A stretch of DNA of 64,000 nucleotides from Candidatus Shapirobacteria bacterium (GTDB taxonomy: Bacteria > Patescibacteriota > Microgenomatia > UBA12405). The stretch is from positions 197,867-261,866 of the forward strand of contig JBAYIT010000002.1 in assembly GCA_041665485.1 (NCBI GenBank). Direction: 5' to 3'. Every line of letters starts with the position of its first letter. Within the stretch, counting starts at the first letter, position 1. The notes below the pieces were generated by a model. It was not told the origin of the DNA and made no database searches. It saw only the letters and a list, made by a program, of their open reading frames with translations. The position numbers and the translations under genes were made by a program. Shown piece by piece: positions 11,801 to 54,243 of this stretch.

Positions 11801-13767
11801 GAACTGCCGTTCCAATATTTCCAAGTGTTGCCGGACTCACAAGCTGTTCCCTGCCCGACACTTTTATTATCACTTCCAGCCGCGCCCAAATCATCGGTAC
11901 ATAATTGGTATTTGATGGTGGAGTTGCCAGTATGAGTGGCATCAGCCGTACAAACTGAACCAACCAGAGTTCCTTCACACAAATTGTCCCAGGTATTAAC
12001 CAGACCATTAAAATAACCGTCTTTATTGAAAACACTGTAGGTGCCTTGTTTTATCAAAGTCAGCTCATCAACTTTAACGGATTTGCCTCTTTTGACCAAA
12101 ACTCCGGCATCAACTGCGCTGTTAACACCGGTAACCGTGCCGGTTAATTTGTACCAGTTGCCGGTAACCGAAGTGTATGTGGGGCTGGTGATGGTGTTGC
12201 CGCCGTAATAAAGAGTAGCCACGGTGTCATCAACCACTCCACCAACCGGATCGGAACTCAAGTTATAGACATATGCTGAAATGGTGTAAGGAGCAGTATC
12301 GCCAACATTAACTGATTGATAGAGTTTGCCATCGACAATAGAGCCTATAGTAATTGTATTTCCACCGGCGCCGGGAAACCCGGAACTAGATGAGAAAGAT
12401 TGAGAGATTGCTACGGGACCACTGGCGCAGCGGAAACCAAGACTGTAGGCCGTACCCGTGGGCGCATAGATCAGATGCAAGGCGAACACACCCGCGCCCG
12501 TGGTATCGTTCCAAGCGCTGCCGCGTAAGAACGCGAAATTAGTGCCGTTTGTTCGAGCCCCCATATAATATTTACCCATGCCTTGAGCAGAGCCCCATGC
12601 AGTATTAGATGGCCTTAAAAGATCATAAGCTAAAGTACCGTAGTTACCGGCGCTGTTAAAGTACGGCCAATCAACATAAGCAGCAGTCTGAGCACTATCA
12701 GGTTTATTTTGTCCTAAAATTGAATCATTTGTCCACTCCCAGACGTTACCGGCCATATCCCAAATAATTTGTCCATTTGATAGAGTAAAAGTTCTTTTTT
12801 GTTTGCCTGAAGTATTATCGCAAACTGTTGCCCCTGTGGTTGTTTTATAACAGGCATAGGTGTCGTTGGTACTGGCATCAAGCGCCAGCCCCGTATCACC
12901 GTTTATGGCTTCGCTTACATTATCATTGTGGCCAGAGGCTAGCATGCCGGTTCCCGGCGTATTGCCGCATGGATAAACGCCATAACCGCCAACCGCAGTG
13001 CACCAGTTAGCGCTTTGACCTTCCGCATTGCGGGCAACTGTCATCCATTCGTTATTCGTAATCAGATGAGGGGCAGTAACTCCGACTCCCAATGACATAT
13101 TCGAACAGTAGCTTTCCGCATCGTTGGCGGTGCTGTCGTTTTGAGGAATATAGGCGATAGGAAAACCTTGGGCAGTTGAAACAACATGTTTTGCCCCAGT
13201 ACTATTACTACAGCTACATCCAGCTCCATTATTTCGGTACGTTCCGTATTGATCTCCCGTGCCATCTGCACCTGCCGAGCCATTACAGACATTACCTGAA
13301 GCGACCGTATTTCCCACATTGTCGCCGTCAGTGTCGCATTTGGCTTCATATTTCATTGCCAAAAAATTACCAGTAGGAGGATTATAGGTTGCGTTGGCGG
13401 GTACTTCTACCCAGCCGGAAGGGGGAACCGCGGCCACACTCCAAGAATCAGCATTATCTGTAAAGGCCGGATTAGCGAATTTATTAGCGCCAACTGTTCC
13501 GCCCGTTGGCTGTGCACCAGTATCATTAACCGTGGTTAAACTGGTCGTGTAGTCTGAAGCGGTCGCGCTTGAGAATGTCCATTCTTTTTTGCTGTCATTT
13601 AGGGCAAATACATTGGGAAATAGTTCTGATAAAGCCAGATAGGAACCGCCAAAAAGTCCGATTGTAATAAACAATATAGCCAACAGGTTAAACTGAAACC
13701 TGGAAAAATGAAATCGCGGCTCAAAGAAATACTTTTTAATGTTATGAATTAGGTTCATGTTGGTCAA
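8887..13767 (-). CDS. Giant (1626 aa) membrane-anchored surface protein: N-terminal signal-anchor, FGE-sulfatase/C-type-lectin-fold domain carrying the DGR variable region, long FN3/Ig-like repeat stalk; DGR target protein
   Basis: FGE/CLec motifs (NVWEWT, RGSAWN, GFRCAS); VR at codons about 411-450; C-terminal roughly 500 aa highly similar to the 23526..28031 protein. Confidence 0.8.
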   Translation of the reverse strand: MTNMNLIHNIKKYFFEPRFHFSRFQFNLLAILFITIGLFGGSYLALSELFPNVFALNDSKKEWTFSSATASDYTTSLTTVNDTGAQPTGGTVGANKFANPAFTDNADSWSVAAVPPSGWVEVPANATYNPPTGNFLAMKYEAKCDTDGDNVGNTVASGNVCNGSAGADGTGDQYGTYRNNGAGCSCSNSTGAKHVVSTAQGFPIAYIPQNDSTANDAESYCSNMSLGVGVTAPHLITNNEWMTVARNAEGQSANWCTAVGGYGVYPCGNTPGTGMLASGHNDNVSEAINGDTGLALDASTNDTYACYKTTTGATVCDNTSGKQKRTFTLSNGQIIWDMAGNVWEWTNDSILGQNKPDSAQTAAYVDWPYFNSAGNYGTLAYDLLRPSNTAWGSAQGMGKYYMGARTNGTNFAFLRGSAWNDTTGAGVFALHLIYAPTGTAYSLGFRCASGPVAISQSFSSSSGFPGAGGNTITIGSIVDGKLYQSVNVGDTAPYTISAYVYNLSSDPVGGVVDDTVATLYYGGNTITSPTYTSVTGNWYKLTGTVTGVNSAVDAGVLVKRGKSVKVDELTLIKQGTYSVFNKDGYFNGLVNTWDNLCEGTLVGSVCTADATHTGNSTIKYQLCTDDLGAAGSDNKSVGQGTACESGNTWKYWNGSSWVVAGATDGNTAAQLMDAQNPIMQHASLIATSHKISVKAIFNSESADVPKLPHISVGFTTDTNPPNVANGGSNASTILMSRSNGGTTVASNGWTNNPSPYFSWTAGADNPNESGVKGYCLSLSLDNNGDDIPDNDPATAKGLLSTSPVPTDGTTCQFIVTGTSIDLASHFTTPLSTSPKSYLFAVKVVDKSGNIFAGNSATFKFRYDDTRPLNTAYISCASGSFSNVADMNFSWPTTDSVASSDTVTEVVGSGILGWQYQINTTTGTWLGTTTEALVGINNYVPTSATSRTLTQAQDGKSDSLPHGIDSGNNIIYFRTVDIAGNISTDATIRTCNLNYGGAAPAFDGLATVTVTPSTSTSNSYALSWPEATPTNGKTVAHYYYMINTSPPSTLATLQGNATTYIDNGTSRTVSAAALPGVNKGTNTVNVVAIDNASTPNYSPSNYISASFTLDSTDPDNPGNLVASDSSIKSQSQWNVTLTWTAPTYKGAGNLTYLVYRSTDGTTFAQTGTTSGLSYVDNTPTSAKYYYKIYAKDGANAQSSGSNAVSITPTGKWTSAPSLSTGPDVGSITTKKATITWTTSRSSDSKVQYGTTSGSYNTVEPSNSSQVSSHSIQLTGLNPGTTYYYKTKWTDEDGNTGASEEKSFSTSSAPTVKDVSAKNIGLTTAIIQFTSNNASKIKIYYGTTTSFGGAKEISTSTTETTYTAELTGLLDGTKYYYKINTFDSESSEYEGTILDFTTLPRPKISNVRIQQVANTAQSTLLVTWITNTEVSSIVTYYPEGNSADARDEVNVALTKGDHRMIIRGLLPQTNYIMVVRGRDKIGNEAASDSQRLTTATDTRPPQVLELHVEGATIPPTASTAQESTAQLIVSWNTDEPATSQVEFGEGTGTTYSQKTQEDTNLTINHLVIISNLTPAKVYHVRSTSKDKVGNVGNSIDTVTITPKATDNALNLVITNLQQAFGFMGGTNK
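12364..12385 (-). promoter_or_regulatory. GC-rich hairpin (ggcgccgggaaacccgg) about 35 nt 3' of VR on the coding strand; candidate DGR target-recognition hairpin
   Basis: Stem ccggg/cccgg with aaa loop in otherwise AT-rich DNA; absent next to TR. Confidence 0.4.
12420..12535 (-). repeat. DGR variable repeat (VR), 116 bp, inside the giant surface protein gene
   Basis: 99 of 116 identity to TR at 15381..15496; all 17 mismatches are where TR has A on the coding (minus) strand; encodes ...APTGTAYSLGFRCAS. Confidence 0.85.
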
Positions 13768-18578: not shown

Positions 18579-21248
18579 TCAAAGTGCCTTGATTTGTTCA
18601 AACTTATTCTCATTACCCGCGATAGTTTTCTTTGTTTTGAGAGTTACTGGTACACCTTGTTTAATCCCTGTTTTAGTGCCGTACAATGATCTTGAGTTGC
18701 TAATAGCTTTTTCCTTTGTGGCATTACTTCCGGTAATTGTAAAATCGTCAATCTCACCAGTAAAAGAATCTTGAGGTTCGAGGGCGTTTATTTTGATATA
18801 GAAATGATATGAGGGTAGGTTGCCAATTTGGCCTTCTTCTACTTGGGGCGCAAAAATTGGCAGGATTTTACTTTCATCCTTAGGGCTTGAGGTTCTAAAA
18901 GAGATAATTGTTCCGCTATTTCCAATGATCGTATCCAATAGATCGTCATCTAACTGGACAGTGTTTTGATGGGCTAGAATGGCACATAGTCGGTATTTTC
19001 GAGCCTCAGATAACACTTGAGCAAAGGTGGTTGTAGCAAAGTTTTGGAATTCATCAACATATAGGAAAAAGTCGGTTCGGTTACTTTCCAATAGATTAAT
19101 TCTTCGAAAAGCAGCCAGTTCCAGTTTGGCAATTATTAAGCTACCTAAAAAGAAAGAATTGTCCTCACCGATTTTTCCCTTGGACAGATCACATAAAAGT
19201 ATCTTCTTATTATCCATAATATCGTTAAAATCCAGCTTAGTTTTGGGTTGATTCAAAATATTACGCGTTAGGGTAGTGGTTAAGAATCGACCCAATTTAT
19301 TGGTAATGGGTGAAATTTGTTCCGCTCTCTGGTAACTTCCGGCAGCCCCAAACTCATTTTTCCAAAAGGTCTTTAAGACTTCATCAGTTAATTCATTTAC
19401 AACTCGTTTACGGTATTTGGTATCAGTTAGAAGTTCATATATGGTAAATAGAGTCGGTGTTTCAAGTTCTAAGGCAGTTAAAATGACATTTCTTAATATA
19501 TGCTCCATTCGGGGACCGGAATATCTGGCTTCGTATAGCTTATGAAATACGGATATAAGACTTGAGGTAATAAAATCTTTTTCCCGCTCTCTTTCAACTG
19601 GTGGTAAATCTTTAGGTAATTCCAGAAAATTTAGACCAATCGGATATTCGATATCATAGGGATTAAAGTAAACCACATCTTCGATTCGGTCTTTGGGGAT
19701 TATTTCCAGAAGTCTTTTTGATAAATCTCCATGAGGATCTATCACTGCCAAACCTTTACCATGGCCTAAATCTTGATAAATCATTTGTAGAAGTAAGGTA
19801 GTTTTACCTGTACCAGTTGCTCCGATCATGTAGGTATGGCGTCTTCGTTCTTCCAGTGTTTGACCAATAACTGTTTCTGTCTCGCCGTATTTGTTTTTGG
19901 CAAAAGTAATGTCAAAACCAATATCGGCTTTTTTTAATGATAAAGGAGGTGGTAATTGAGGACTTTTTATTTTTTGTAAATCTTCTGTTTGCGTAGTTGT
20001 AGTAAAAGGAAAGTGATACAAAGAAGAAAGTTCAGTTACCGATAAAATCGAGCTATTTGTAAGTACAGATAGGCGGTCAGTTAAAAGAATTTTGAAAATG
20101 TTGTCAAAAACCTTATTATGAAAAATCAAAGCTGATGAATCCTTAACCTGAAACGACTGATTGGGAGTGGCAAAAGTGTCAAAAGACGAGGTAAGACCGC
20201 TTAAACGTCTCTTATTGTTTTCTTGATCTTTAGTTTGGGAAATAAACCGAATGGTAACATCAAATAACGGCTGGTTAATCTTATCTTGAATGGTTTGATA
20301 AAGCTGTTGTTTTGGTAAACCAATTTCGTTTAAGCGTTTATTATTACCACCATCAAAGACCCACCAAGCGAGAAGTTGGGCATGATTATCTTTATCGAGA
20401 AACCAATCGATAAGAGTAAATGGTGAAAGAATTAAAACCAAAAATAGTCTAAAAATTAGATTAATAGCATCATAAAGTAAATTAACAACTGAAAGATTCA
20501 AACCGTTTCTAATTTTGTGTGAGATATCAGTGTTTCCCATAAATAACTCGCTAATTTCCCTGTTGTGGTGAGTAATTCTCGGATAGGTATTTTCTTGAAT
20601 CGGTGAACAGATGAATTGAAGAGAAACTAGCTCATTCTCAAGCAGTTTAGTCATGTGGGCTGTCACATATGCAATTGGATCATACTCATTAAGAGATGCT
20701 TGGCTTTGAAGCGGATATACATAAGAGCTTTTTAAACTAATTTCTTTGATACCAATAGGAAAACTAGTTAAACTATCATTTAAATAATCGGTAGTTTCTC
20801 TGATCTCAACTCCCGGAAGATAAGCTAACAGTGTTTTTTTAACAACGGATTTATCTTTATCTGAAATTCGTAGAATATACCTAATACCCAGTTGTTTGGT
20901 GGATACTAATTCAAAAGTTAGTTTTCTTTTAAAACCTATTATCCGCTCAATAAATGAATTTTGTTTTCCCAGCGAATGAAATAGGGTATAAAGCTCATTG
21001 GTTGATAAGGGGCTTTTTAAGGTTTTATCTGTTGGTCTGACTTCTAGGTATGCATAGCTTTCTGTAATTGCTTTTTTTATCCTGATATAGAGCAAAATGA
21101 CAGATACAACTCCTAAAAAGGAAAATATCGTTATCAGTAATACGGGAAGTGCAGATAAATATTGGCTAATTGGTGCGGTAAATAACCATGAGAGATAGCT
21201 TGGAAAAACTTTGGAATAATCTATAGTGGCAATGTTGCTGTCCATCAT
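18579..21248 (-). CDS. Type IV coupling protein (VirD4/TraG/TraD-like ATPase) with N-terminal TM helices
   Basis: Two N-terminal TM helices; Walker A GATGTGKTT followed by IDPHGDL; Walker B-like LYVDEFQNF; 889 aa. Confidence 0.7.
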   Translation of the reverse strand: MMDSNIATIDYSKVFPSYLSWLFTAPISQYLSALPVLLITIFSFLGVVSVILLYIRIKKAITESYAYLEVRPTDKTLKSPLSTNELYTLFHSLGKQNSFIERIIGFKRKLTFELVSTKQLGIRYILRISDKDKSVVKKTLLAYLPGVEIRETTDYLNDSLTSFPIGIKEISLKSSYVYPLQSQASLNEYDPIAYVTAHMTKLLENELVSLQFICSPIQENTYPRITHHNREISELFMGNTDISHKIRNGLNLSVVNLLYDAINLIFRLFLVLILSPFTLIDWFLDKDNHAQLLAWWVFDGGNNKRLNEIGLPKQQLYQTIQDKINQPLFDVTIRFISQTKDQENNKRRLSGLTSSFDTFATPNQSFQVKDSSALIFHNKVFDNIFKILLTDRLSVLTNSSILSVTELSSLYHFPFTTTTQTEDLQKIKSPQLPPPLSLKKADIGFDITFAKNKYGETETVIGQTLEERRRHTYMIGATGTGKTTLLLQMIYQDLGHGKGLAVIDPHGDLSKRLLEIIPKDRIEDVVYFNPYDIEYPIGLNFLELPKDLPPVEREREKDFITSSLISVFHKLYEARYSGPRMEHILRNVILTALELETPTLFTIYELLTDTKYRKRVVNELTDEVLKTFWKNEFGAAGSYQRAEQISPITNKLGRFLTTTLTRNILNQPKTKLDFNDIMDNKKILLCDLSKGKIGEDNSFFLGSLIIAKLELAAFRRINLLESNRTDFFLYVDEFQNFATTTFAQVLSEARKYRLCAILAHQNTVQLDDDLLDTIIGNSGTIISFRTSSPKDESKILPIFAPQVEEGQIGNLPSYHFYIKINALEPQDSFTGEIDDFTITGSNATKEKAISNSRSLYGTKTGIKQGVPVTLKTKKTIAGNENKFEQIKAL

Positions 21249-21697: not shown

Positions 21698-23230
21698 ATG
21701 GAAATCATCAAAAGCGATAACAGTATTAAAGGAGCAATCATGTATCTAAGGGTATCGACCGAAGAACAAGTCGATAATTTTTCGCTGGAAACTCAAGAAA
21801 AGATTTGTAGACAAGAAGCGGAACGTCGAAACATGGAAGTCATTCAAATCTTTAAAGAGGAAGGTCGATCAGCAAAAAACATTACAGGCAGACCCGTATT
21901 AATTGAAATGCTTGAGTTTTGTCGAAAAAATAAACGGACTGTTGATGCTTTGATCGTGTATCGTTTAGACCGTCTTTCTCGTCAAACCGTTGACTTCCTC
22001 GCTATTCGGAAAAAACTATCAGAAAATCAAATCGCTATTATTTCGACATCAGAGCCAACAGGAAACAGCCCGACAGAAAGATTTATTGAAACGATGTTGG
22101 CGAGTTTCGCTCAAATGGATAACGATGTCCGAAGTGAAAGAACAAAAAATGGCTTAAAAGCACGATTTATGTCTGGTTTAACCAGTGGCGTACCACCAAT
22201 TGGATATATAAGCGAAAATGGCTACGCAGTCAAAGACCCTAAAACTTGGGATAATATCAAAAAGTCCTGGGAACTCATGGGAACAGGAACAAAATCACTC
22301 AAAGAAATGGCTGTTATCATGAATGCATGGGGAGTAAGGCAGCATTTTCATGGCAAGGAACATATTGTAAGGCATCAGGCCATTGGTCGAATGTTTCGGA
22401 ACAAATACTACATCGGTATATTGACTTCAGAGAGATATCCCGAAGAAGTCAAAGGACAACATCTTCCCATGGTTACAGAAGCCCTCTTCTATCGCATTCA
22501 AGCCATCATTGACGGTAGAAATACCAATATTAATGTACCAAACGTACGACATAATCGTGATAACCCGGAATTTCCCCTTAGAAGAATCGTAAAATGTGGT
22601 CTTTGTGACAACCCTATGACTGCTGGATGGAGCAAAGGGAAAAATGCCCGCTATGCTTATTATCGTTGTCAAAGATGTAATAAAGCTCCATCAATTCCAG
22701 CAGATAAAATTAACAATTCCGCCATTAGCTTTTTATCAACCATTTCTCCGACTGACGAGGCTCTTAAAGCTTTTGTTGGTCTTCTTCGTCACACTTACTA
22801 TCAAAGGATTGCTCGACTCCAAAAACGCAAAGATGAGGCAGATGGCGAGTTGAAACGCTTAAAAACCCTTCGACAGTCTTTAATTGAAAAGAATCTTAAC
22901 GGAATATATTCAGACGAGATTTTTCGTGAACAAAATAAACTGATTGAGGAACAGATTGCTAATGTCCAAGTTACCAAAGATGACACATTACTTGCAAAAT
23001 TTAATCTCCAAGATATCGTCAAATTTATGCTGGATAAATTCGCCAATTTGGGAAGAACGTATCAAATGTCAAACCTAAACCAGATCAGAATGCTTCTGTG
23101 TTCAATATGCCCCTCTGGATTGAAGTGGGACAATTTAAGCTACTCGAACACCGAGATTAGCCCGATATATAAATCAATTCGTATGTTTGAAGCAGAGGTC
23201 TGCTCCTTTGGTGCCGGGAAGAGGACTTGA
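21698..23230 (+). CDS. Large serine recombinase (integrase), probable true start at ATG 21740
   Basis: N-terminal resolvase domain with catalytic Ser motif YLRVSTEEQ; recombinase domain; zinc ribbon CGLCDN...YYRCQRC; coiled-coil; 3' end overlaps tRNA-Leu. Confidence 0.8.
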   Translation: MEIIKSDNSIKGAIMYLRVSTEEQVDNFSLETQEKICRQEAERRNMEVIQIFKEEGRSAKNITGRPVLIEMLEFCRKNKRTVDALIVYRLDRLSRQTVDFLAIRKKLSENQIAIISTSEPTGNSPTERFIETMLASFAQMDNDVRSERTKNGLKARFMSGLTSGVPPIGYISENGYAVKDPKTWDNIKKSWELMGTGTKSLKEMAVIMNAWGVRQHFHGKEHIVRHQAIGRMFRNKYYIGILTSERYPEEVKGQHLPMVTEALFYRIQAIIDGRNTNINVPNVRHNRDNPEFPLRRIVKCGLCDNPMTAGWSKGKNARYAYYRCQRCNKAPSIPADKINNSAISFLSTISPTDEALKAFVGLLRHTYYQRIARLQKRKDEADGELKRLKTLRQSLIEKNLNGIYSDEIFREQNKLIEEQIANVQVTKDDTLLAKFNLQDIVKFMLDKFANLGRTYQMSNLNQIRMLLCSICPSGLKWDNLSYSNTEISPIYKSIRMFEAEVCSFGAGKRT

Positions 23231-23293
23231 ACCTCCATGGATTGCTCCACACGCACCTCAAGCGTGCTTGTCTACCAATTTCAACATCCCGGC
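23209..23293 (-). tRNA. tRNA-Leu (anticodon GAG), long variable arm, CCA encoded
   Basis: Acceptor gccggga/tcccggc, anticodon stem cacgc/gcgtg with loop ttGAGgt, T-arm ggttcaagtcc. Confidence 0.75.
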
Positions 23294-23388
23294 TCTAGTC
23301 GCTATTATACCTAATGATTTATCAATTTTATACTTCTTCGTAATCTGACAACACGTTTACGACAACTGCAAACTGTAAACCGATCTAG

Positions 23389-23461
23389 TGGCTGTTGAGG
23401 GACTCGAACCCCCGACCGCCCCGATGTAAACGGGATGCTCTACCAACTGAGCTAAACAGCC
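23389..23461 (-). tRNA. tRNA-Val (anticodon TAC)
   Basis: Acceptor ggctgtt/aacagcc, D-arm gctcagttggtagagc, anticodon loop ttTACat, T-arm gggttcgagtccc. Confidence 0.75.
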
Positions 23462-35245: not shown

Positions 35246-35318
35246 GTGCCGAAGGTTGGACTCGAACCAACATCCCAGGTTTTTCAGACCAGTGCCGTGA
35301 CCATCTTGGCTACTTCGG
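35246..35318 (-). tRNA. tRNA-Phe (anticodon GAA), copy 1
   Basis: Acceptor gccgaag/cttcggc, anticodon loop ctGAAaa with a U-U mismatch in the anticodon stem, T-arm ggttcgagtcc. Confidence 0.65.
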
Positions 35319-35391
35319 CTAGAAGTGACTTTATTATATCAATTCAATCTTTAATTCGTAATTCTAAGTTGAAGATTGAAGATTGATCTAG

Positions 35392-47384: not shown

Positions 47385-49154
47385 ATGTCACAAATAGATG
47401 CCAAAAGCCATCAAAATGATGAACTTTATAAAATTCGTCACAGCGCCGAACACGTTTTGACTCAAGCCGTCGAAACACTTTATCCCAATCAAACTGTTAG
47501 AGTCATGGGTCCGGCCACCGATGACGGTTTTTACATGGACTTCGAACCTCTCGGCGATCTCAAAATCTCCGATGCTGATTTTCCTAAAATCGAAGCCGAA
47601 ATGGCTAAAATCATCAAAGCCAATTTACCTATAGTTAGGAAAGAAATTAGTCTAGATGAAGCCAAAAAAATCTTTGCCGATAATCCATACAAAATGGACT
47701 GGCTTAATTCCATTACCGATAGGGGAGAAGTGATTAGTGTTTACCATACCGCCGATCAATATTTTGACCTCTGTGCCGGCCCCCACGCCGCCTCTACGGG
47801 TGAAATCAAAGCCTTCAAACTTCTTTCTATTGCCGGCGCTTACTGGCACGGCGACGAGAAAAACAAAATGCTTACTCGTATTTACGCCACCGCCTTTGAA
47901 TCTCAAAAAGAATTAGATTCCTATTTGTTCATGATTGAAGAGGCCAAAAAACGCGATCATCGCAAATTAGGCCCGCAATTAGGCTTATTTTTCCTCGACG
48001 AAACTGCTCCAGGCATGCCCTACTGGCTACCCAAGGGCACAATTATCATCAACGAGTTATTAAGTTTTTGGCGTCAAGAACACGCCAAACGTGGTTATCT
48101 TGAAACTATTACTCCTCTTTTGAACAAAAATTCACTTTACATCACTTCCGGCCACTGGGAGCATTATCGCCAACACATGTTTATCGCCGATATGAAAGAA
48201 GACGGCCTTTACTGTCTTAAACCCATGAATTGTCCCAACGCCATGACTATTTATTCTAAAAGCAAACATAGCTATCGAGAGTTACCCCTCCGTCTCTCCG
48301 ATTGCGACACTCTTCATCGTCACGAAAAATCTGGCGAATTAAATGGCCTTCTTCGTGTTCAAAAGTTTGCCCAAGATGACGCTCATATTTTCGTCACTGA
48401 AAGCCAAATTGCCGACGAATACAAAAGAATACTTGAAATTGCCAACCTCTTTTATTCCATTTTTGGCATTAAATTTAAAATTCGTTTAGGCACTCGACCA
48501 GATGATTTTATGGGTGACATCGAAACCTGGAACAAAGCCGAAAAAGAACTGGAACAAATTTTAGTCGACAACAAGTTCGATTATTTTGTTGGTGAAGGAG
48601 AAGGAGCTTTTTACGGCCCTAAACTCGATATTCTTATGGATGATTGCCTTGGGCGCCAATGGCAAACCGGCACCATCCAACTCGACTTCCAATTACCCCG
48701 TAATTTCGACCTAAAATACACTGACTCTGACGGCACCGAAAAAACTCCAGTTGTCATTCATCGGGTAATTTATGGATCGCTTGAACGTTTCATGGGAATT
48801 TTAATTGAGCAATTTGCCGGGGCGTTTCCTGTCTGGCTTTCTCCACTCCAAGCCAAAATTATTCCCATCACCGATGCTCAACACGAGTATGCCAATAAAG
48901 TTTTGGCCAAATTGATAGGGGAGGGGATTAGAGTCGAAATTGACGACCGTGGTGAAAAAATGCAGGGAAAAATCCGCGATGCCCAATTAGAAAAAATCCC
49001 TTATATGTTAATTATTGGCCAACGCGAAATCGATGCTGGTGCTGTCGCCGTTCGTCAACGCGACGGCCAAGATCTGGGGGCGATAAGTATTGATGACTTT
49101 ATTGCCAAAGTTAAGGACCAAATCACCACCAAGTCTTTAAATTTGATACAATAA
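47385..49154 (+). CDS. thrS: Threonyl-tRNA synthetase (short form without the N-terminal TGS domain)
   Basis: Editing-domain start HSAEHVLTQAV, class II motifs, RDHRKLG motif, anticodon-binding C-terminus. Confidence 0.9.
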   Translation: MSQIDAKSHQNDELYKIRHSAEHVLTQAVETLYPNQTVRVMGPATDDGFYMDFEPLGDLKISDADFPKIEAEMAKIIKANLPIVRKEISLDEAKKIFADNPYKMDWLNSITDRGEVISVYHTADQYFDLCAGPHAASTGEIKAFKLLSIAGAYWHGDEKNKMLTRIYATAFESQKELDSYLFMIEEAKKRDHRKLGPQLGLFFLDETAPGMPYWLPKGTIIINELLSFWRQEHAKRGYLETITPLLNKNSLYITSGHWEHYRQHMFIADMKEDGLYCLKPMNCPNAMTIYSKSKHSYRELPLRLSDCDTLHRHEKSGELNGLLRVQKFAQDDAHIFVTESQIADEYKRILEIANLFYSIFGIKFKIRLGTRPDDFMGDIETWNKAEKELEQILVDNKFDYFVGEGEGAFYGPKLDILMDDCLGRQWQTGTIQLDFQLPRNFDLKYTDSDGTEKTPVVIHRVIYGSLERFMGILIEQFAGAFPVWLSPLQAKIIPITDAQHEYANKVLAKLIGEGIRVEIDDRGEKMQGKIRDAQLEKIPYMLIIGQREIDAGAVAVRQRDGQDLGAISIDDFIAKVKDQITTKSLNLIQ

Positions 49155-49218: not shown

Positions 49219-49791
49219 GTGGCTACTTACCGTAAAACTAATCACAGCAAAATTTTTTACAAAATTAATCAGTATATCTCTGCTCCCGAAGTTCGTCTGG
49301 TCGACGAAGATGCCAAACAAATCGGTGTTCTTTCTATCGCCGAAGCCCGGGCTAAATCAGCCGAAACCGGCCTTGATCTGGTTGAAATCGCCCCGCTAGC
49401 TAAACCACCGGTTGTCAAACTAATTGAATTTGCCAAATTTAAATATCAAGAATCAAAAAAGCTTAAGGCTGAAAAGAAAGGTGTTCGTGGTGGTGAGCTC
49501 AAAGAAGTTCAAATGACCCCCTTTATTGGCGCTCAAGACTTTATCACCCGCGTCAAACGCTCACGCGAATTTCTAACTACTGGAAATAAAGTTAAATTAA
49601 GTATAAAATTCCAAGGTCGCCAAATCCAGCGTAAGGAGTTTGGCTATCAGTTAGCCGACAGATTCACTCAGGAGCTATCCGATATTTCCGCTCGCGAAGG
49701 CGAGCCACGGCTTATCGGTAAGCAACTAATTCTAACCTTGACTCCTGTCAAGAAAAAAAATGAAAAAAGCAAGCCAGAGACTAAAAATTAG
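49219..49791 (+). CDS. infC: Translation initiation factor IF-3 (start codon uncertain, likely non-ATG)
   Basis: EVRLVDEDAKQIGVLSIAEARAKSAETGLDLVEIAPLAKPPVVKLIEFAKFKY matches IF-3. Confidence 0.8.
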   Translation: MATYRKTNHSKIFYKINQYISAPEVRLVDEDAKQIGVLSIAEARAKSAETGLDLVEIAPLAKPPVVKLIEFAKFKYQESKKLKAEKKGVRGGELKEVQMTPFIGAQDFITRVKRSREFLTTGNKVKLSIKFQGRQIQRKEFGYQLADRFTQELSDISAREGEPRLIGKQLILTLTPVKKKNEKSKPETKN

Positions 49792-50117: not shown

Positions 50118-50468
50118 ATGCGCGTTAAAACAGGTATCGTCAGACACCGAAAACATAAAAAAATCCTCGAACAGGCCAAGGGTTTTTGGATGACCCGCCA
50201 CAAACGGTTTAAGGTCGCCAAAGAAGCTGTTATGCACTCCGGCCAATACGCCTACGAAGGTCGTCGTATTCGTCGCCGTGACATGCGCCAAATTTGGATT
50301 GTTCGGCTCAATGCTGCTCTTGCCTCCTACAATCTAAAGTACTCAGTCTTTATCGCCAAACTTAAAGAAGTCAAAGTCGAGCTTAATCGAAAAATGTTGG
50401 CCGATATTTCCGTCACTGACCCAGCTACCTTCAAATCAATTATCAACACTCTTTTTCCTACTAAGTAG
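50118..50468 (+). CDS. rplT: 50S ribosomal protein L20
   Basis: MRVKTGIVRHRKHKKILEQAKGF... Confidence 0.9.
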   Translation: MRVKTGIVRHRKHKKILEQAKGFWMTRHKRFKVAKEAVMHSGQYAYEGRRIRRRDMRQIWIVRLNAALASYNLKYSVFIAKLKEVKVELNRKMLADISVTDPATFKSIINTLFPTK

Positions 50469-50599: not shown

Positions 50600-50630
50600 A
50601 CTAAGACCTCCCGCAAGGGAGGTTTTTTGT
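50600..50630 (+). terminator. Intrinsic terminator after rplT (cctcccgcaagggagg tttttt)
   Basis: GC stem-loop with T-run; immediately precedes tRNA-Phe. Confidence 0.55.
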
Positions 50631-50632
50631 TG

Positions 50633-50708
50633 GCCGGAGTAGCCAAGTTGGTCACGGCACTGGTCTGAAAAACCTGGGATGTTGGTTCGATTCCAACCTC
50701 CGGCACCA
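50633..50708 (+). tRNA. tRNA-Phe (anticodon GAA), copy 2, CCA encoded
   Basis: Acceptor gccggag/ctccggc, anticodon loop ctGAAaa (U-U mismatch in stem as in copy 1), T-arm gttgg ttcgatt ccaac. Confidence 0.7.
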
Positions 50709-50737
50709 ACCTTAAAATAAGTTAAAATATATAAAAT

Positions 50738-51724
50738 ATGGATCTAAATACAATTAAAATCGAAGTCAACGATTGTCAAAATCAATCTGACCTTGAGGCT
50801 GTTCGAATTAAATATCTCGGCCGCCAAGGCCTAATTAACCAAGAATTCTCCAAAATCAAAACTGCTACAGATCCAAAAAAATTTGGTCTAGAATTGAACA
50901 AACTAAAAAACAACGTTGAAGGAATAATTAAAAATAAATTATCAACCATAAGGACATTGCCCACAAAGTATCTACCTGAAAAAAGGGAAAAAAATATTAT
51001 TTCTCTTCCAAAAATAGGTCATTTGCACCCCATCACCCAAACCGAACGTGAACTAAACGAAGTTTTCCGTAAGTTAGGCTTTTCTATTTACGGTGGACCA
51101 GAGCTGGTTACTGACGAATATAATTTCAGACGCCTTAATGTTCCTGTCAATCATCCTGCCCGCGACATGCAAGACACCATTTACATTAAAGAACCCGAAC
51201 TGCTTCTACAAACTCAGGGTTCAGCTATTGAATCACAATTATTAGCCAGTCATAAACCCCCCATTCGTTGTGCTTTCCCTTGTAAAGTTTTTCGTAACGA
51301 AAAAGTTACCAAAAGCAATCACTTCGTTTTTCATCATTATCAGGCTGTCGTCGTTGATAAAGGTATTACCATGAAAGATTTAATCGGCACTATGGATCTA
51401 ATGTTTAAAACCATCTATGGACCCAACGTCATCGTCCGTTATCGTTGTAAATATTATCCAGAAATTGAACCCGGTGTCGGCCCCGACATGCAATGCTTTA
51501 ATTGTAAGGGCACCGGTTGCGCTCTCTGCAAGTACGCTGGTTGGATCGAAATGGGTGGCTCGGGTATGATTCACCCTAAAGTTCTGGAAATGGCTGGTAT
51601 CGACCACCATGTTTACTCTGGTTTCGCCTTTGGCATGGGTCTTGATCGTTGGACTATGGCTCAAAAAAATATTAAAGATATTCGCACCCTTATGGGTGGA
51701 AATCTCGCTTACAAACCCAACTAA
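50738..51724 (+). CDS. pheS: Phenylalanyl-tRNA synthetase alpha subunit
   Basis: HPARDMQDTIYI, FRNE, GFAFGMGLDRWTMA class II motifs. Confidence 0.9.
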   Translation: MDLNTIKIEVNDCQNQSDLEAVRIKYLGRQGLINQEFSKIKTATDPKKFGLELNKLKNNVEGIIKNKLSTIRTLPTKYLPEKREKNIISLPKIGHLHPITQTERELNEVFRKLGFSIYGGPELVTDEYNFRRLNVPVNHPARDMQDTIYIKEPELLLQTQGSAIESQLLASHKPPIRCAFPCKVFRNEKVTKSNHFVFHHYQAVVVDKGITMKDLIGTMDLMFKTIYGPNVIVRYRCKYYPEIEPGVGPDMQCFNCKGTGCALCKYAGWIEMGGSGMIHPKVLEMAGIDHHVYSGFAFGMGLDRWTMAQKNIKDIRTLMGGNLAYKPN

Positions 51725-51726
51725 TT

Positions 51727-54243
51727 ATGAAATTAATCTATTCCTATCTCCAAAAATTTCTTCCTGACTTAAATGTCGAACCTCAAAAGCTTCGTGATGA
51801 TCTGACCATGATTGGCCATTTCACCAATTTTTATGAAAAAATTGATAATGAAATTGTTTTTGATTTAGATATTAAAATTAATCGCGGCGATTGCCTTGGC
51901 TATTATGGCTTAGCCAACGATCTTTCTGTTCTTTACAATATTCCACTGGTTTTACCCCAAAATTTTTCTTATCCTGCATCTAATTGTTCCCTACCAATTC
52001 AAGTTACTACTGACAATGTCACCCGTATCATGGCGGTTAAAATTGTCCACCTAAAAAACTCAACTTCACCTCAATGGTTGCAAACTTTTTTAAAATTACA
52101 TGGAGTTAATTCAATTAATACATTAGTTGATCTAACCAACTATGTCATGTTCATGTATAGTATACCAAATCATGCCTTCGATACCGCTAAATCTAATGAT
52201 AATCTTATTTGGGAAATGAATTCTAAATATTCAGAATTTACTAGTCTTGATGGTACTGTTTTAAAACTTGACCCCAGTATTTTAATGATCAATAATCCCC
52301 AACGGCCTTTGAGTCTTAGTTTCTGGGGAGGAGAAGATTGTGCTATCGACAATCAAACCACCAGTACTATTATTGAAATGGCTATCTACAAGCCCACCAC
52401 TGTTCGTCAAAACAGTCGTGGCTTAAAAAGTGTTACCGAAGCTTCAATTCGTCTTGAAAAACAATTGGACCCCGATTTAATTCCTACTGCTCTTGACCAT
52501 TTAGTTAAATTAATTAATGAAAATTGTGGTGGCCAAATTACTTCGCAAGTTTTTGATTATTACCCCAATCCCATCACTCCGCCAACCATTGAATTTAATT
52601 TAGATTTACCATCAATCATGTCTGGCATCAACATACCTCAGGATGTCTCTCTGGACATATTAAAACGTCTTGGTTGCACTATTAGAGGTAAGTTCATTAC
52701 TCCTCCTAGTCTCCGTCTAGACATTACCCAAGAAGAGGATTTAGTTGAAGAAGTTGTTCGATTCTATGGCTACAACAAAATTCCCATAAATGAACCACTA
52801 ACTCTTAAACAACTTCCAGATATTACCCCCAAAGAAATTTACCAAATTGAGGAACTTAAGGATAAACTAGTTGCATTAGGTTATGATGAAATTTTATCTT
52901 GGCCAATTATTTCAAAACCATCTAACCCTAAAACTGTCGTTACCACTCAAAACAGCATCAACTCTGAATCCATTTATCTTCGTCAAAGTATGACCCAATC
53001 CCTTCGTGGTCAACTGGATCAATATACCCGCTACAATCTTCCCCGTCCCCAATTTTTTGAAATTGGTGAAGTTTTTTCCAAAGAGGGAGACAAAATTACC
53101 GAACAAACTTCTCTCGCTCTATACAATCAGGATTCCGATCAGTTGCATACCGACACTTTACGATGCCTTTCTTCTGAAAATTGGCTCTTTCAAGATAACT
53201 TCGCCGAAATAATCCTCGACAATCTCCCCAAACCCGAAAGCTATATCCCCCAAACCATCAACAATGAGGCCATCGAGCTTACCTCCCAAATCATTACTCT
53301 CGACGCCAATATCACTCTTCCCCAAAAACGCGATCATCAAGAATTGATCCGCGAATATCGGTCTAAAATCAGTGAAAATATTTTATGGTCGATGGACATC
53401 GTCGATATCTTTAATAACAAATACACCTTCCGTGTTTCCTACTACAACTGCACCGACAAACTGGCCAAATCCACCCACCTTTCCGCCTTTGGACTACTCG
53501 ACCAGACCAAAACAACCACCATCGCCATTGACCCCAACACTGAAACTAAACTTCTCTATTACGATGATATGTACCAAACCACCGCTAAAGCCCAAATTAT
53601 TGATATTAGAAAGGTTAATAATCAGAATTATTTGATACTAGACCAAACCGTTTTCTTCCCCGAAGGCGGTGGTCAGCCCGGCGACCAGGGCACGATTTCC
53701 AACTCTTCAAATAACCTAAAAATTAAAGTTATTTTATACAAGGATGGTCAGATCTTACATGCCACCAGCAACAACACCCTTTCGATTGGTGATCAAATTG
53801 ATCTAAAGATAGATTGGAATCGGCGATACAAATACATGAAAATTCATTCCGCCGGACACCTGCTCCATGAGATTTTAATGGAAGTTGATTCTACTCTTGT
53901 CCCTCTTAAGGGCTACCATCACGACGAATCATATTTAATCTACTCTGGATATATTGATCCTAAATCCATTTCTCAAATTGAATCTAAATTATCAACCGCC
54001 ATTACGGCCGATTTACCAATCATTTGCGACTATACCGATTTAGAAACGCTAAAAAAAGATGCCAGATCGGTCCCCCAAAATCTCCCCCTTCACAAAAAAC
54101 TCCGCCGTCTTAAAATCGGCAACTTTCCCAGTATGGCTGACGGCGGTGTCCAAGTCAAATCAACCGAAGAAATCGGCCAAGTTAAAATTACCGCCATTGA
54201 AAATACTCAAAATCAGTGTAAAATATCCTACCAAGTACTATGA
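51727..54243 (+). CDS. pheT: Phenylalanyl-tRNA synthetase beta subunit with a C-terminal AlaX/ThrRS-SAD-like (putative editing) domain fusion
   Basis: B3/4 and B5 region motifs; C-terminal roughly 230 aa with FFPEGGGQPGDQG and HSAGHLL...H motifs characteristic of AlaX-type editing domains. Confidence 0.8.
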   Translation: MKLIYSYLQKFLPDLNVEPQKLRDDLTMIGHFTNFYEKIDNEIVFDLDIKINRGDCLGYYGLANDLSVLYNIPLVLPQNFSYPASNCSLPIQVTTDNVTRIMAVKIVHLKNSTSPQWLQTFLKLHGVNSINTLVDLTNYVMFMYSIPNHAFDTAKSNDNLIWEMNSKYSEFTSLDGTVLKLDPSILMINNPQRPLSLSFWGGEDCAIDNQTTSTIIEMAIYKPTTVRQNSRGLKSVTEASIRLEKQLDPDLIPTALDHLVKLINENCGGQITSQVFDYYPNPITPPTIEFNLDLPSIMSGINIPQDVSLDILKRLGCTIRGKFITPPSLRLDITQEEDLVEEVVRFYGYNKIPINEPLTLKQLPDITPKEIYQIEELKDKLVALGYDEILSWPIISKPSNPKTVVTTQNSINSESIYLRQSMTQSLRGQLDQYTRYNLPRPQFFEIGEVFSKEGDKITEQTSLALYNQDSDQLHTDTLRCLSSENWLFQDNFAEIILDNLPKPESYIPQTINNEAIELTSQIITLDANITLPQKRDHQELIREYRSKISENILWSMDIVDIFNNKYTFRVSYYNCTDKLAKSTHLSAFGLLDQTKTTTIAIDPNTETKLLYYDDMYQTTAKAQIIDIRKVNNQNYLILDQTVFFPEGGGQPGDQGTISNSSNNLKIKVILYKDGQILHATSNNTLSIGDQIDLKIDWNRRYKYMKIHSAGHLLHEILMEVDSTLVPLKGYHHDESYLIYSGYIDPKSISQIESKLSTAITADLPIICDYTDLETLKKDARSVPQNLPLHKKLRRLKIGNFPSMADGGVQVKSTEEIGQVKITAIENTQNQCKISYQVL

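Follow-up and report, generated by a model that had tools for sequence, protein, structure and literature searches.

A PheRS beta subunit with a fused AlaX-type module in Shapirobacteria: a candidate second proofreading site

In a Candidatus Shapirobacteria bacterium, the pheT gene carried by the stretch of DNA that we analyzed (64,000 nucleotides, hereafter the window) encodes a PheRS beta subunit extended at its C-terminus by a complete AlaX-M-type module. This fusion is real and old. From its sequence, the module is a member of a large and distinct branch of the AlaX/AlaRS-editing fold in which an Asp takes the place of the Cys of the CxGxH motif, and this branch is an undescribed part of the known AlaX family. 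The repeated attachment or adjacency of its members to the Phe and Trp synthetases points to an unstudied proofreading partnership. We propose that the fused module may act as a tethered, probably Zn-independent aminoacyl-tRNA deacylase and provide PheRS with a second proofreading site, a proposal whose chances we consider to be about even. PheRS proofreading is generally ascribed to a single site, B3/4, whereas guarding the Ala (and Thr) codons, via an invariant HxxxH/CxGxH zinc site, is the role usually given to the AlaX/AlaRS editing fold. Literature searches on a PheRS-AlaX fusion or on the editing of CPR aminoacyl-tRNA synthetases returned no paper describing this module.

Gene order and domain layout of the fusion

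The fusion is encoded by one ORF that starts 3 nt past the end of pheS. The features of the locus, with the evidence used to delimit them, are the following:

50633..50708, + strand: tRNA-Phe(GAA), CCA encoded (ARAGORN, Rfam)
50738-51724, + strand: pheS, PheRS alpha subunit, 328 aa (Pfam tRNA-synt_2d, E 3.8e-68; Phe_tRNA-synt_N, E 5.5e-8)
51727-54243, + strand: ORF of the pheT-AlaX fusion, a single unbroken frame of 838 aa
51727..53496, + strand: PheT body, residues 1-590 (Pfam, TIGR00472, alignment to E. coli 3pco_B, AF2)
53497..53544, + strand: linker LDQTKTTTIAIDPNTE, residues 591-606 (ends of relatives, low identity, AF2 pLDDT)
53545..53826, + strand: AlaX-M-type N-terminal beta-barrel, residues 607-700 (Pfam tRNA-synt_2c profile positions 449-552, AF2, Foldseek)
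53827..54243, + strand: AlaX editing core, residues 701-838, and stop codon (alignment to 2e1b and 9iuw)

The tRNA-Phe(GAA) gene is located between the terminator-like hairpin of rplT and pheS, and an Rfam scan of the window returned tRNAs only and no other RNA family. Save for the module, the window has the same gene order (thrS-infC-rpmI-rplT-pheS-pheT|PBP1A|recG) as an unfused Shapirobacteria locus (L002), which holds no alaX. Judged from this comparison of gene orders, the module was inserted into the pheT locus.

The fusion is shared and conserved among relatives

The same fusion occurs in no fewer than 14 relatives (51-65% identity), originating from different samples, and in more loci (L086 and L088-L094) from independent samples, with a conserved junction geometry. 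Hundreds of PheT from Shapirobacteria and Woesebacteria, at 62-67% identity, end near 596 aa and are without the module. In other CPR lineages, the homologue either forms a gene of its own immediately upstream of pheS or is fused to PheS. The fused PheT modules were monophyletic in an NJ tree, which is only indicative and according to which the PheT fusion arose once.

Among the fused proteins, the mean pairwise identity of the module (56.5%) was close to that of the PheT body (56.8%), and 57 module residues were invariant, including GGGQP, H707, H711, H731, D805, Q809, T813 and E815. The module is conserved like the essential PheT body and is under purifying selection. By comparison, the linker showed a mean pairwise identity of 27% versus 57% in the flanking parts. 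Unfused relatives terminate near residue 590 (alignment A1), just ahead of this linker, where the AF2 pLDDT dropped below 50 at residues 593-600; the model with this low-confidence linker reached a pTM of 0.50.

An artefact, either a chimeric assembly, a frameshift or a mis-called read-through joining two genes, could be suspected from one locus (L001) in which pheT and the alaX-like part are annotated as two genes. However, these two parts share the same frame and are separated by a single TAA, and the upstream codons called as intergenic encode the conserved module start YQYIDPKTETKLLYY. Moreover, the ORF of the window is continuous and the fusion recurs with the same junction geometry in the at least 14 proteins and in some 10 additional loci that stem from independent samples. 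We thus regard an artefact as extremely improbable. The TAA of L001 lies in frame inside the linker, at the position where relatives carry a Lys. Because of the common frame, of this single TAA and of the module start encoded upstream, L001 is read as a broken fusion; the view of L001 as the ancestral two-gene state was rejected.

The PheT body and its B3/4 site

We identified in the PheT body the B3/4 (residues 100-268), B5 (288-349) and CLM/B6-7 (374-466+) domains in the expected order, with Pfam E-values of 1e-39, 4e-14 and 4.5e-9, respectively, and a putative B8-like ferredoxin fold at about 523-587. For this last region, Pfam FDX-ACB (B8) did not match the protein of the window at E 0.1; the AF2 secondary structure is beta-alpha-beta-beta-alpha, and a related fusion (P0242) does match FDX-ACB (E 1.5e-11). 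The N-terminal B1/B2 region (OB-fold tRNA_bind) is absent: residues 24-468 align to positions 142-597 of the 798 of TIGR00472, and residue 30 pairs with E. coli residue 144 in the 3pco_B alignment. Loss of B1/B2 in PheT is common across CPR (PMC5370408).

The B3/4 editing residues N138, H149, G201, E217, T237 and A239 correspond to E. coli N254, H265, G318, E334, T354 and A356. All six were invariant in the alignment of fused proteins (A1), and in the A4 alignment four to five of the six (N138, H149, G201, E217, T237) were invariant and A239 nearly so, while E. coli R244 is replaced by N128. In our best reading, the gene product is a working PheRS beta subunit of the CPR type whose own B3/4 editing site is intact. 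A replacement of a degenerate B3/4 by the module was not supported in the clade of the window, where the six key residues are kept. In other CPR loci (L003-L005, L116, L123, L125 and L162), the B3/4 Glu334 (E. coli numbering) is changed to Phe, and such a replacement may apply to these lineages.

An AlaX-type module with an Asp-for-Cys motif

As the initial annotation had proposed, an AlaX-like domain is appended to pheT: residues 607-838 (nt 53545-54240) follow the last PheT domain, and profile, PDB and fold comparisons assigned this C-terminus to the AlaX-M/AlaRS-editing fold and not to canonical PheT domains only. The appendage had been placed from 53500, where the linker begins; the module itself starts at 53545. 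The best profile was NCBIfam AlaXM NF040865 (E 2e-41, residues 607-829, profile positions 1-224 of 234), together with the archaeal (E 4e-35) and bacterial (E 2e-31) AlaRS models and the C-terminal part of Pfam tRNA-synt_2c (E 1.8e-14). A phmmer search of the PDB retrieved AlaX-M 2e1b (E 1.5e-24). Chance can by no means account for matches of this strength. The AF2 model of the module (pLDDT 94.1, pTM 0.90) gave Foldseek TM scores of 0.77-0.90 against AlaX-M (2e1b, 9iuw), 3kew and the AlaRS editing regions (2zzf, 3wqy). The module scored 142-146 bits on AlaXM, below the equivalog cut-off of 300 bits, and free-standing members of the Asp subfamily obtained the same score.

The four motifs on which the domain had originally been recognized were all located: FFPEGGGQPGDQG at residues 643-655 (nt 53653-53691), HSAGHLL at 707-713 (nt 53845-53865), KGYHHDE at 728-734 (nt 53908-53928) and GGVQVKSTEEIG at 806-817 (nt 54142-54177). 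Their description as typical of AlaX/ThrRS-SAD holds for two elements. The Gly-rich motif FFPEGGGQPGD (residues 643-653, with GGGQP at nt 53665-53679) is invariant in A1 and in the family alignment A2, where the invariant loop positions are P44, G46-G48, Q49, P50 and D52. The HxxxH motif, H707-S-A-G-H711 (nt 53845-53859), is kept in 14/14 fused proteins and in A2. A further invariant residue is H731 (nt 53917-53919). By contrast, the region of GGVQVKSTEEIG is atypical: the second motif D805-G-G-V-Q809 (nt 54139-54153) replaces the C-G-G-T-H of 2e1b and 9iuw, so that CxGxH is changed at both its Cys (to Asp) and its last His (to Gln). With D-G-G-V-Q-V in place of C-G-G-T-H-V, Pfam tRNA_SAD consequently scored 17.3 bits, under its 24-bit cut-off.

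This substitution is shared well beyond the fusion. Almost all of the 120 closest free-standing homologues carry an Asp at the position of the CxGxH Cys, and the last position of the motif varies among close homologues (H, Q, L or I). Throughout the subfamily, which numbers at least hundreds of clusters, the Gly-rich loop, HxxxH, the Asp, T813 and E815 do not vary. Archaeal AlaX-M-like proteins also show ADGGTHV.

Comparison with known systems

AlaX-M (P. horikoshii 2E1B; P. furiosus 9IUW) and C. perfringens 3KEW, the best PDB sequence matches, have the same two-subdomain fold (TMt 0.85-0.86), a size of about 230 aa, the FxPxGGGQPxD loop and HxxxH. Nevertheless, the module has D805 and Q809 where CxGxH has its Cys and its final His, its C-terminal half aligns weakly to 2e1b (domain score of 2.3 bits), it is joined covalently to PheRS beta whereas AlaX-M is free-standing, and no evidence ties it to tRNA-Ala. 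The closest structure is the AlaRS editing domain (A. fulgidus 3WQY/2ZTG; P. horikoshii 2ZZF/2ZZG; TMq 0.87-0.90, rmsd 1.8-2.6 Å), likewise an editing-type domain in cis on a class II synthetase. In contrast to AlaRS, the host PheRS beta already has an unrelated editing domain, B3/4, the module is attached through a flexible linker with no C-Ala, and it does not keep CxGxH, described as universally conserved in the AlaX/AlaRS editing family (PMC12003907).

B3/4 and its free-standing relative CtdA (PMC10018355, PMC12449066) are PheRS-linked post-transfer editing factors, as the module would be, but are unrelated to it in fold and chemistry. B3/4 clears Tyr-tRNA-Phe, and the module would be a second, different site in the same protein. 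BesG and AlfB belong to the same fold family, and it is their gene context, not their sequence, that reveals a substrate other than Ser/Gly-tRNA-Ala, namely beta-ethynylserine on tRNA-Thr and 3-hydroxymethionine on tRNA-Met (PMC13149037). We therefore applied the same context-guided logic to the module, although BesG and AlfB are free-standing and encoded in biosynthetic gene clusters, whereas the context here is a synthetase fusion. The study of BesG and AlfB was length-filtered for stand-alone proteins and does not mention PheRS (PMC13149037).

The AXD of apicomplexan TrpRS (PMC3680381) is also an AlaX-like module fused through a linker to an aromatic synthetase and not to AlaRS or ThrRS, with a bacterial parallel in a protein that combines AlaX-like, B3/4 and TrpRS parts (L133). 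The AXD is AlaX-S-like, about 155 aa long and devoid of both HxxxH and CxxxH, and it is regarded as assisting tRNA binding (PMC3680381). The module of the window is AlaX-M-like, is located on PheRS and keeps the Gly-rich loop; because it also retains HxxxH and an invariant Asp for Cys, we did not file it with the AXD.

The AXD nonetheless suggests that the module could be a non-catalytic tRNA-binding appendage, which would offset the missing B1/B2 and aid tRNA-Phe binding or B3/4 editing. Plasmodium TrpRS requires its N-terminal AlaX-like domain, judged inactive, to bind tRNA and for aminoacylation (PMC3680381), CPR PheT are without B2 (TIGR00472 alignment; PMC5370408), and in one further fusion (P0257) a tRNA_bind OB domain adjoins the AlaX-like module at the PheT C-terminus. 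In addition, the module has other residues at two of the four canonical Zn-ligand positions, and the mitoribosomal mL39, recovered among the Foldseek matches, is a non-enzymatic user of the fold. However, the Plasmodium domain has lost all four ligands and the motifs, whereas here HxxxH, the loop, the Asp, T813 and E815 do not change, and this invariance throughout the subfamily argues for a conserved active-site pattern beyond an RNA-binding surface alone. Unfused sister Shapirobacteria, moreover, are also without B1/B2 and have no module at the locus. We consider a purely non-catalytic role quite unlikely; should the module prove inactive, it would be the bacterial equivalent of the appendage on apicomplexan TrpRS.

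Linkage of the subfamily to Phe and Trp synthetases

Three apparently independent synthetase fusions were found in the subfamily, at the PheT C-terminus, at the PheS N-terminus and with TrpRS. Besides the clade of the window, PheT C-terminal fusions comprise P0242, P0255 and P0257. The PheS N-terminal fusions were detected in loci L004 and L005 and in at least nine clusters (P0245, P0247, P0248, P0251, P0253, P0259, P0260, P0265 and P0337), and the TrpRS fusion in L133. A free subfamily gene is located between rplT and pheS in eight loci (L003, L098, L115, L116, L123, L124, L139 and L162), and beside trpS or tyrS in L083, L085, L103, L108, L119 and others. In the AlaX control loci, none of the 77 had PheS, PheT, TrpRS or TyrRS within 4 kb. 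These loci, obtained from a family-alignment scan of genome contigs, are mostly canonical AlaX (59 CxxxH and 5 archaeal DxxxH); the pattern PEGGGQPxD was too general, so the scan was swamped by canonical AlaX and used only as a control. Many free-standing members of the subfamily occur in unrelated contexts (ribosomal S7, DUF2000, radical SAM, cupin).

These data bear on the possibility that the module is an ordinary AlaX performing generic trans-editing of Ser/Gly-tRNA-Ala (or Ser-tRNA-Thr) with no relation to tRNA-Phe, located in the highly expressed thrS-infC-rpmI-rplT-pheST operon for co-expression and fused to PheT when a stop codon was lost. Its top profile matches are indeed AlaXM and AlaRS, with an identical fold, the tether is flexible and weakly conserved, L001 tolerates a stop codon in the linker, and the free members have varied contexts. 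Fusing and exchanging domains is a familiar trait of CPR synthetase genes (PMC5370408). By tblastn, alaS was not found in the window or in any retrieved CPR locus, and an AlaRS without editing domain is possible. In contrast, independent fusions at opposite ends of two PheRS subunits, together with free genes repeatedly placed directly upstream of pheS, are more than co-expression predicts. The clade of the window further needed a placement downstream of pheT, unlike other lineages, no such link was seen in the 0/77 control loci, and the subfamily scores less than half of the AlaXM equivalog cut-off (142 vs 300 bits) and misses the Cys. We judge the ordinary AlaX reading unlikely, and infer from the repeated fusion and the operon linkage that trans-editing may be coupled to PheRS.

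A candidate second proofreading site

In the proposed mechanism, the flexible linker of about 16 residues would tie the complete AlaX-M-type module to the PheT C-terminus and let it re-sample aminoacyl-tRNA leaving PheRS. The module would be a still-active deacylase, probably not needing the canonical Zn site and having no oxidisable Cys in its putative active site, and would hydrolyse mischarged species not handled by B3/4. By analogy with characterized AlaX-family enzymes, of which BesG and AlfB act on tRNAs other than tRNA-Ala (PMC13149037), the target may be a small or beta-hydroxylated residue.

In E. coli AlaRS, Cys666 plays an important part in editing. With CxGxH stated to be universal (PMC12003907), the Asp/Gln form may lack activity. 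However, the argument that Cys to Asp proves inactivity is weakened by the archaeal ADGGTHV, by the invariant Asp and by the reported dispensability of Zn for AlaRS-Ed activity, in which Zn shields the Cys against ROS (PMC12003907). With such a dispensable Zn, the fourth ligand would be expected to drift when an Asp takes the place of the Cys. An active module would represent a new editing activity for aromatic-amino-acid tRNAs, a natural test of whether Zn only shields the catalytic Cys from oxidation, and a case of genome-reduced CPR bacteria building multi-site quality-control enzymes through domain fusion.

Several observations weigh against the deacylase proposal. The B3/4 of the window looks fully competent, which leaves no obvious need for a second editing site. 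The model, with its flexible linker, has a low pTM (0.50), and docking of the module on PheRS or its reach to the tRNA is only putative. The stop codon in the linker of L001 suggests that the covalent link may be dispensable. The many free-standing members in unrelated gene contexts also count against it. In view of the TrpRS and YbaK-type links, CPR genomes could just pool editing factors with any synthetase.

A wider form of the second-site proposal would make the Asp-variant AlaX-like proteins a dedicated and hitherto overlooked proofreading factor, of PheRS foremost and also of TrpRS and TyrRS. This factor would be a Zn-independent and oxidation-proof deacylase, its target on tRNA-Phe/tRNA-Trp would lie beyond B3/4 (e.g., beta-hydroxylated or oxidised aromatics, Ser/Thr), and it would fully take over PheRS editing in those CPR lineages where B3/4 is without the Tyr-recognising Glu (E334 to Phe). 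Taken jointly, these elements form a tentative reading, possible rather than probable.

We also considered a tRNA-Phe bearing G3:U70 or G4:U69 and mischarged by AlaRS, with the module clearing Ala/Ser-tRNA-Phe, which was not supported. As read from the sequence, the acceptor stem of the tRNA-Phe of the window pairs G1-C72, C2-G71, C3-G70 and G4-C69 and is thus without the G:U identity element for AlaRS; both tRNA-Phe genes are Watson-Crick at 3:70 and 4:69.

AlaX-M-type module at the C-terminus of PheT

The gene of the PheRS beta subunit (PheT) lies in the window in a classical translation operon, with thrS, infC and rplT:

47385-49154, thrS
49219-49791, infC
50118-50468, rplT
50633-50708, tRNA-Phe(GAA) gene with encoded CCA, between the rplT hairpin and pheS
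50738-51724, plus strand, pheS, directly 5' of the pheT-module ORF
51727-54243, plus strand, uninterrupted pheT-module ORF (838 aa) starting 3 nt past the pheS end
53497-53544, plus strand, linker (residues 591-606) preceding the module
53545-54240, plus strand, AlaX-M-type module (residues 607-838)
Next after pheT, minus strand, class A penicillin-binding protein gene, followed by recG

Using Pfam, we detected in PheT the B3_4 (residues 100-268, E 1e-39), B5 (288-349) and CLM (374-466) domains. Beyond these, residues 604-699 match the C-terminal part of tRNA-synt_2c, the AlaRS family model (E 1.8e-14), and residues 795-826 match tRNA_SAD below threshold. With NCBIfam, residues 607-829 aligned to positions 1-224 of 234 of the AlaXM model (E 2e-41); the AlaRS editing regions, both archaeal and bacterial, aligned to them as well. 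A PDB sequence search matched AlaX-M of P. horikoshii and P. furiosus, 3KEW and three archaeal AlaRS structures. The AlphaFold2 model of the isolated module (pLDDT 94.1, pTM 0.90) superposed on AlaRS editing regions (TMq 0.87-0.90), 3KEW (TM 0.82/0.85) and AlaX-M (TM 0.77/0.85), with AlaX-S and ThrRS N2 as more distant matches. Taken together, these domain and PDB matches and the confident superposing model confirm the AlaX-type C-terminal module proposed in the initial annotation, and the prediction shows a complete AlaX-M-type fold in PheRS beta. In the full-length model (pTM 0.50), pLDDT fell below 50 at residues 593-600; as modelled, PheT and the module are well folded domains joined by a flexible tether, which attaches the module to PheRS beta at the C-terminus of its anticodon-binding end.

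The window has a GC content of 40%. Between pheS and a terminator-like hairpin (cccgcaagggagg plus a T-run) after rplT (50600-50737), the tRNA-Phe(GAA) gene occupies the place of the pheM attenuator in E. coli. A tRNA cluster (35246-35319, minus strand) contains another tRNA-Phe, which is almost identical but has no CCA encoded. The window ThrRS (589 aa) has no N-terminal TGS domain and begins directly with the N2 editing domain, in which the canonical HSAEH and CAGPH motifs are kept. The left third of the window (147-23300) resembles an integrated conjugative or mobile element, also containing FtsX/MacB-type permeases:

914-3049, TraG-type P-loop/AAA_10 ATPase
8887-13767, 1626-aa ORF
18579-21248, TrwB-like coupling protein
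21698-23230, large serine recombinase, abutting tRNA-Leu and tRNA-Val genes (23209-23461)

Distribution of the fusion

The same architecture was found in 14 proteins (796-860 aa, 51-65% identity), and also in loci from independent metagenomes (L086, L088-L094). An artefactual joining of two separate genes is thus effectively excluded. In one locus, L001, the gene is called as two; the halves are in frame and separated by a single TAA (L001:2461-2463) where other relatives have Lys, within the linker (…HLSAFGLTAQ*YQYIDPKTETKLLYY…), and the codons past the stop still encode the conserved module start. L001 is either a broken fusion or a sequencing error; besides such an error, its stop could reflect a nonsense mutation that arose recently, or a split that is tolerated.

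Among unfused PheT proteins, those nearest to the window protein (62-67% identity, covering the first 70% of the query) carry the labels Candidatus Shapirobacteria or Woesebacteria, so the window most likely derives from a CPR bacterium of Microgenomates type. In alignment A1 (fused PheT proteins and unfused relatives), the unfused relatives stop exactly at the linker start. Moreover, the L002 locus, on a 735-kb Shapirobacteria contig, has synteny identical to the window with a pheT ending at 597 aa, and alaX is absent from this locus. From these comparisons we conclude that one subclade acquired the module by insertion at the 3' end of its pheT. In an NJ tree, the fused modules form one monophyletic group. 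Across the 14 fused proteins, mean pairwise identity was 56.5% for the module, 56.8% for the PheT body and 27% for the linker, a pattern showing the module to be under the same constraint as PheT.

Cys-to-Asp replacement in the module

HXXXH and CXGXH have been called universally conserved in the AlaX-like family (Gogoi et al., PMC12003907). The view of GGVQVKSTEEIG as a typical motif did not hold, since the C-G-G-T-H-V of AlaX-M aligns with D805-G-G-V-Q809-V in the window module. The aligned active-site motifs are otherwise conserved, Cys to Asp and His to Gln being the exceptions. We observed xDGG[IV]QV in 14/14 fused proteins and [MIV][PA]DGG[VIT][HQ] in almost every one of the 120 nearest free-standing homologues (229-261 aa, 37-47% identity), the last motif position being Leu or Ile in further subfamily members. 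Because fused and free-standing proteins share it, the replacement is no private decay. The Gly-rich loop, both HxxxH His, the KGxH His (H731), the Asp and the T/E of the TxEI motif are invariant in the subfamily, which is the pattern of a conserved active site. ADGGTHV is also present in a small number of AlaX-M-like proteins from archaea; Asp thus seems to be acceptable in place of Cys. In the AlaX/AlaRS-editing fold, zinc is reported to be dispensable for activity and to shield the Cys from oxidation (PMC12003907); drift of the fourth ligand after the Cys-to-Asp change would therefore be expected if the enzyme no longer needs the metal.

The module shares the fold of the AlaX-like family but lacks one of its stated defining motifs, and it scored below the NCBIfam AlaXM equivalog threshold. 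It is an AlaX-M-like Asp variant, not an AlaX-M orthologue.

The PheT body and its B3/4 editing site

The N-terminal B1/B2 domains are absent from the window PheT: its match to TIGR00472 begins with position 142 of the profile, and its residue 30 is aligned with residue 144 of the E. coli protein. Missing N-terminal PheT domains were noted as common in CPR, the small-genome group including Shapirobacteria (Mukai et al., PMC5370408). B8 was not detected by Pfam in the window PheT; a ferredoxin-like beta-alpha-beta-beta-alpha unit is modelled at residues 523-587, and the related fusion protein P0242 matches FDX-ACB.

We took N254, H265, G318, E334, T354 and A356 to be the E. coli B3/4 editing residues; their window counterparts are N138, H149, G201, E217, T237 and A239. 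All six are invariant in A1, and in the wider PheT alignment (A4) five are invariant and A239 nearly so. The canonical Tyr-tRNA-Phe editing site therefore looks intact, and the AlaX-like module adds to this site and does not replace it. A degenerate B3/4 domain in the window clade was unsupported, the editing residues being kept.

In L003, L004, L005, L116, L123, L125/126 and L162, PheT has Phe in the E217 column, and Thr or Ala often replaces the second Gly of the GG motif. In these CPR lineages the AlaX-like gene either precedes pheS or is fused to it; in the window clade the Glu is retained. E334 of E. coli presumably contacts the Tyr hydroxyl. The B3/4 site may be altered in these lineages, a lead for the module replacing B3/4 editing there.

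Genomic contexts of the Asp subfamily

Scanning metagenomes for M[PA]DGG[VI][QH]VK yielded 71 loci. ORFs were called in these, and the neighbours were compared with PheS, PheT and ThrRS of the window as well as with TrpRS and TyrRS taken from two loci.

Arrangements of Asp-subfamily genes
(a) C-terminal PheT fusion: window clade
(b) N-terminal PheS fusion: L004 and L005 (Pfam-verified)
(c) free gene X in the order thrS-infC-rpmI-rplT-X-pheS-pheT: for example L003, L098, L115, L116, L123, L124, L139 and L162 (1.23-Mb contig)
(d) free gene beside trpS: L083/84, L103, L106, L108, L114, L119, L132/135, L136, L140
(e) one gene beside tyrS and an aromatic-amino-acid biosynthesis cluster: L085
(f) triple fusion AlaX-like + B3/4 + TrpRS: L133

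In the 150 top representatives (clusters at 50% identity) from an exhaustive profile search, Pfam verified fusions to PheT (P0242, P0255, P0257) and to PheS (P0245, P0247, P0248, P0251, P0253, P0259, P0260, P0265, P0337), which confirms that synthetase fusion or linkage of the Asp subfamily is general. The subfamily has evidently been attached independently to both PheRS subunits. By the 'Rosetta stone' argument, we infer that the module works with PheRS. Alternatively, it could be a generic Ser/Gly-tRNA-Ala deacylase merely riding the translation operon, which we consider rather unlikely: PheS, PheT, TrpRS or TyrRS occurred within 4 kb in none of 77 control AlaX loci from reference genomes (59 with CxxxH, 5 archaeal with DxxxH). 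At about 16 informative Asp-subfamily loci no synthetase neighbour was found, neighbours including ribosomal S7, DUF2000, radical SAM and cupin genes; the association, though strong, is not obligatory.

Possible function of the module

The most economical reading is that the module would be a second, tethered post-transfer editing site of PheRS, capturing aminoacyl-tRNA as it leaves the synthetase. The substrates hydrolysed by characterised AlaX-family enzymes include Ser, Gly and other beta-hydroxy amino acids and are not confined to tRNA-Ala, BesG acting on tRNA-Thr and AlfB on tRNA-Met (PMC13149037); thus a small or beta-hydroxylated residue on tRNA-Phe is a reasonable guess, though only a guess, for the substrate. 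An AlaRS-attracting G:U pair in tRNA-Phe was unsupported, as tRNA-Phe has no such pair.

The one published precedent for an AlaX-like domain on a non-Ala/Thr synthetase is apicomplexan TrpRS (PMC3680381), whose domain, unlike the module, is of the AlaX-S type, with every ligand lost. The module could likewise be a non-catalytic appendage that binds tRNA, the role of the domain in Plasmodium TrpRS (PMC3680381). It might then make up for the absent B2 domain, which contributes to PheRS editing according to a reference cited in PMC5370408; we regard this reading as unlikely.

In the literature searched, we found no paper on AlaX-type modules on PheRS alpha or beta, nor on the Asp subfamily. A large AlaX genome-mining study covered stand-alone proteins only, kept by length, and left PheRS unmentioned (PMC13149037). 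The automatic JGI annotation of homologue P0007 reads 'phenylalanyl-tRNA synthetase beta subunit/Ser-tRNA(Ala) deacylase AlaX', which means that databases already contain the architecture, uncommented. Both the repeated association with PheRS and TrpRS and the loss of the Cys would surprise a specialist in translational fidelity.

Additional architectures and contexts

In P0257 (1089 aa, JGI PheT), FDX-ACB is followed by tRNA_bind (OB-fold, B2-like) and a C-terminal Asp-variant module; the normally N-terminal OB domain appears to be relocated. TrpRS genes with N-terminal editing-type domains were observed on related, probably CPR, metagenome contigs:

L133, 5500-7881, plus strand, AlaX-like + B3/4 + TrpRS (793 aa)
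L108, 1028-3031, two YbaK-type tRNA_edit domains + TrpRS (667 aa)
L136, 4022-5485, one tRNA_edit + TrpRS (487 aa)
L140, 3846-5336, one tRNA_edit + TrpRS (496 aa)

To our knowledge, no need for editing is known for TrpRS.

On two distinct contigs, a free-standing Asp-variant gene lies immediately downstream of a gene for a DUF2000 protein (139 aa; L118:5069-5488 and L122:5069-5488), and in L112/L113 the AlaX-like gene comes after rpsL-rpsG (ribosomal S7). One CPR genome carries two Asp-variant paralogues on the same 1.23-Mb contig (L160 and L162, ERZ25039515 contig_30883), one in the thrS…pheST operon and the other beside a serine recombinase, a UvrD_C fragment and toxin-antitoxin genes; the latter setting suggests that the family also travels on mobile DNA. 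Canonical (CGGTHV) AlaX fusions among the profile matches carried an IF-2B family domain (P0350, 677 aa), an AMPK1_CBM glycogen-binding domain (P0360, P0376) or TPR repeats (P0306).
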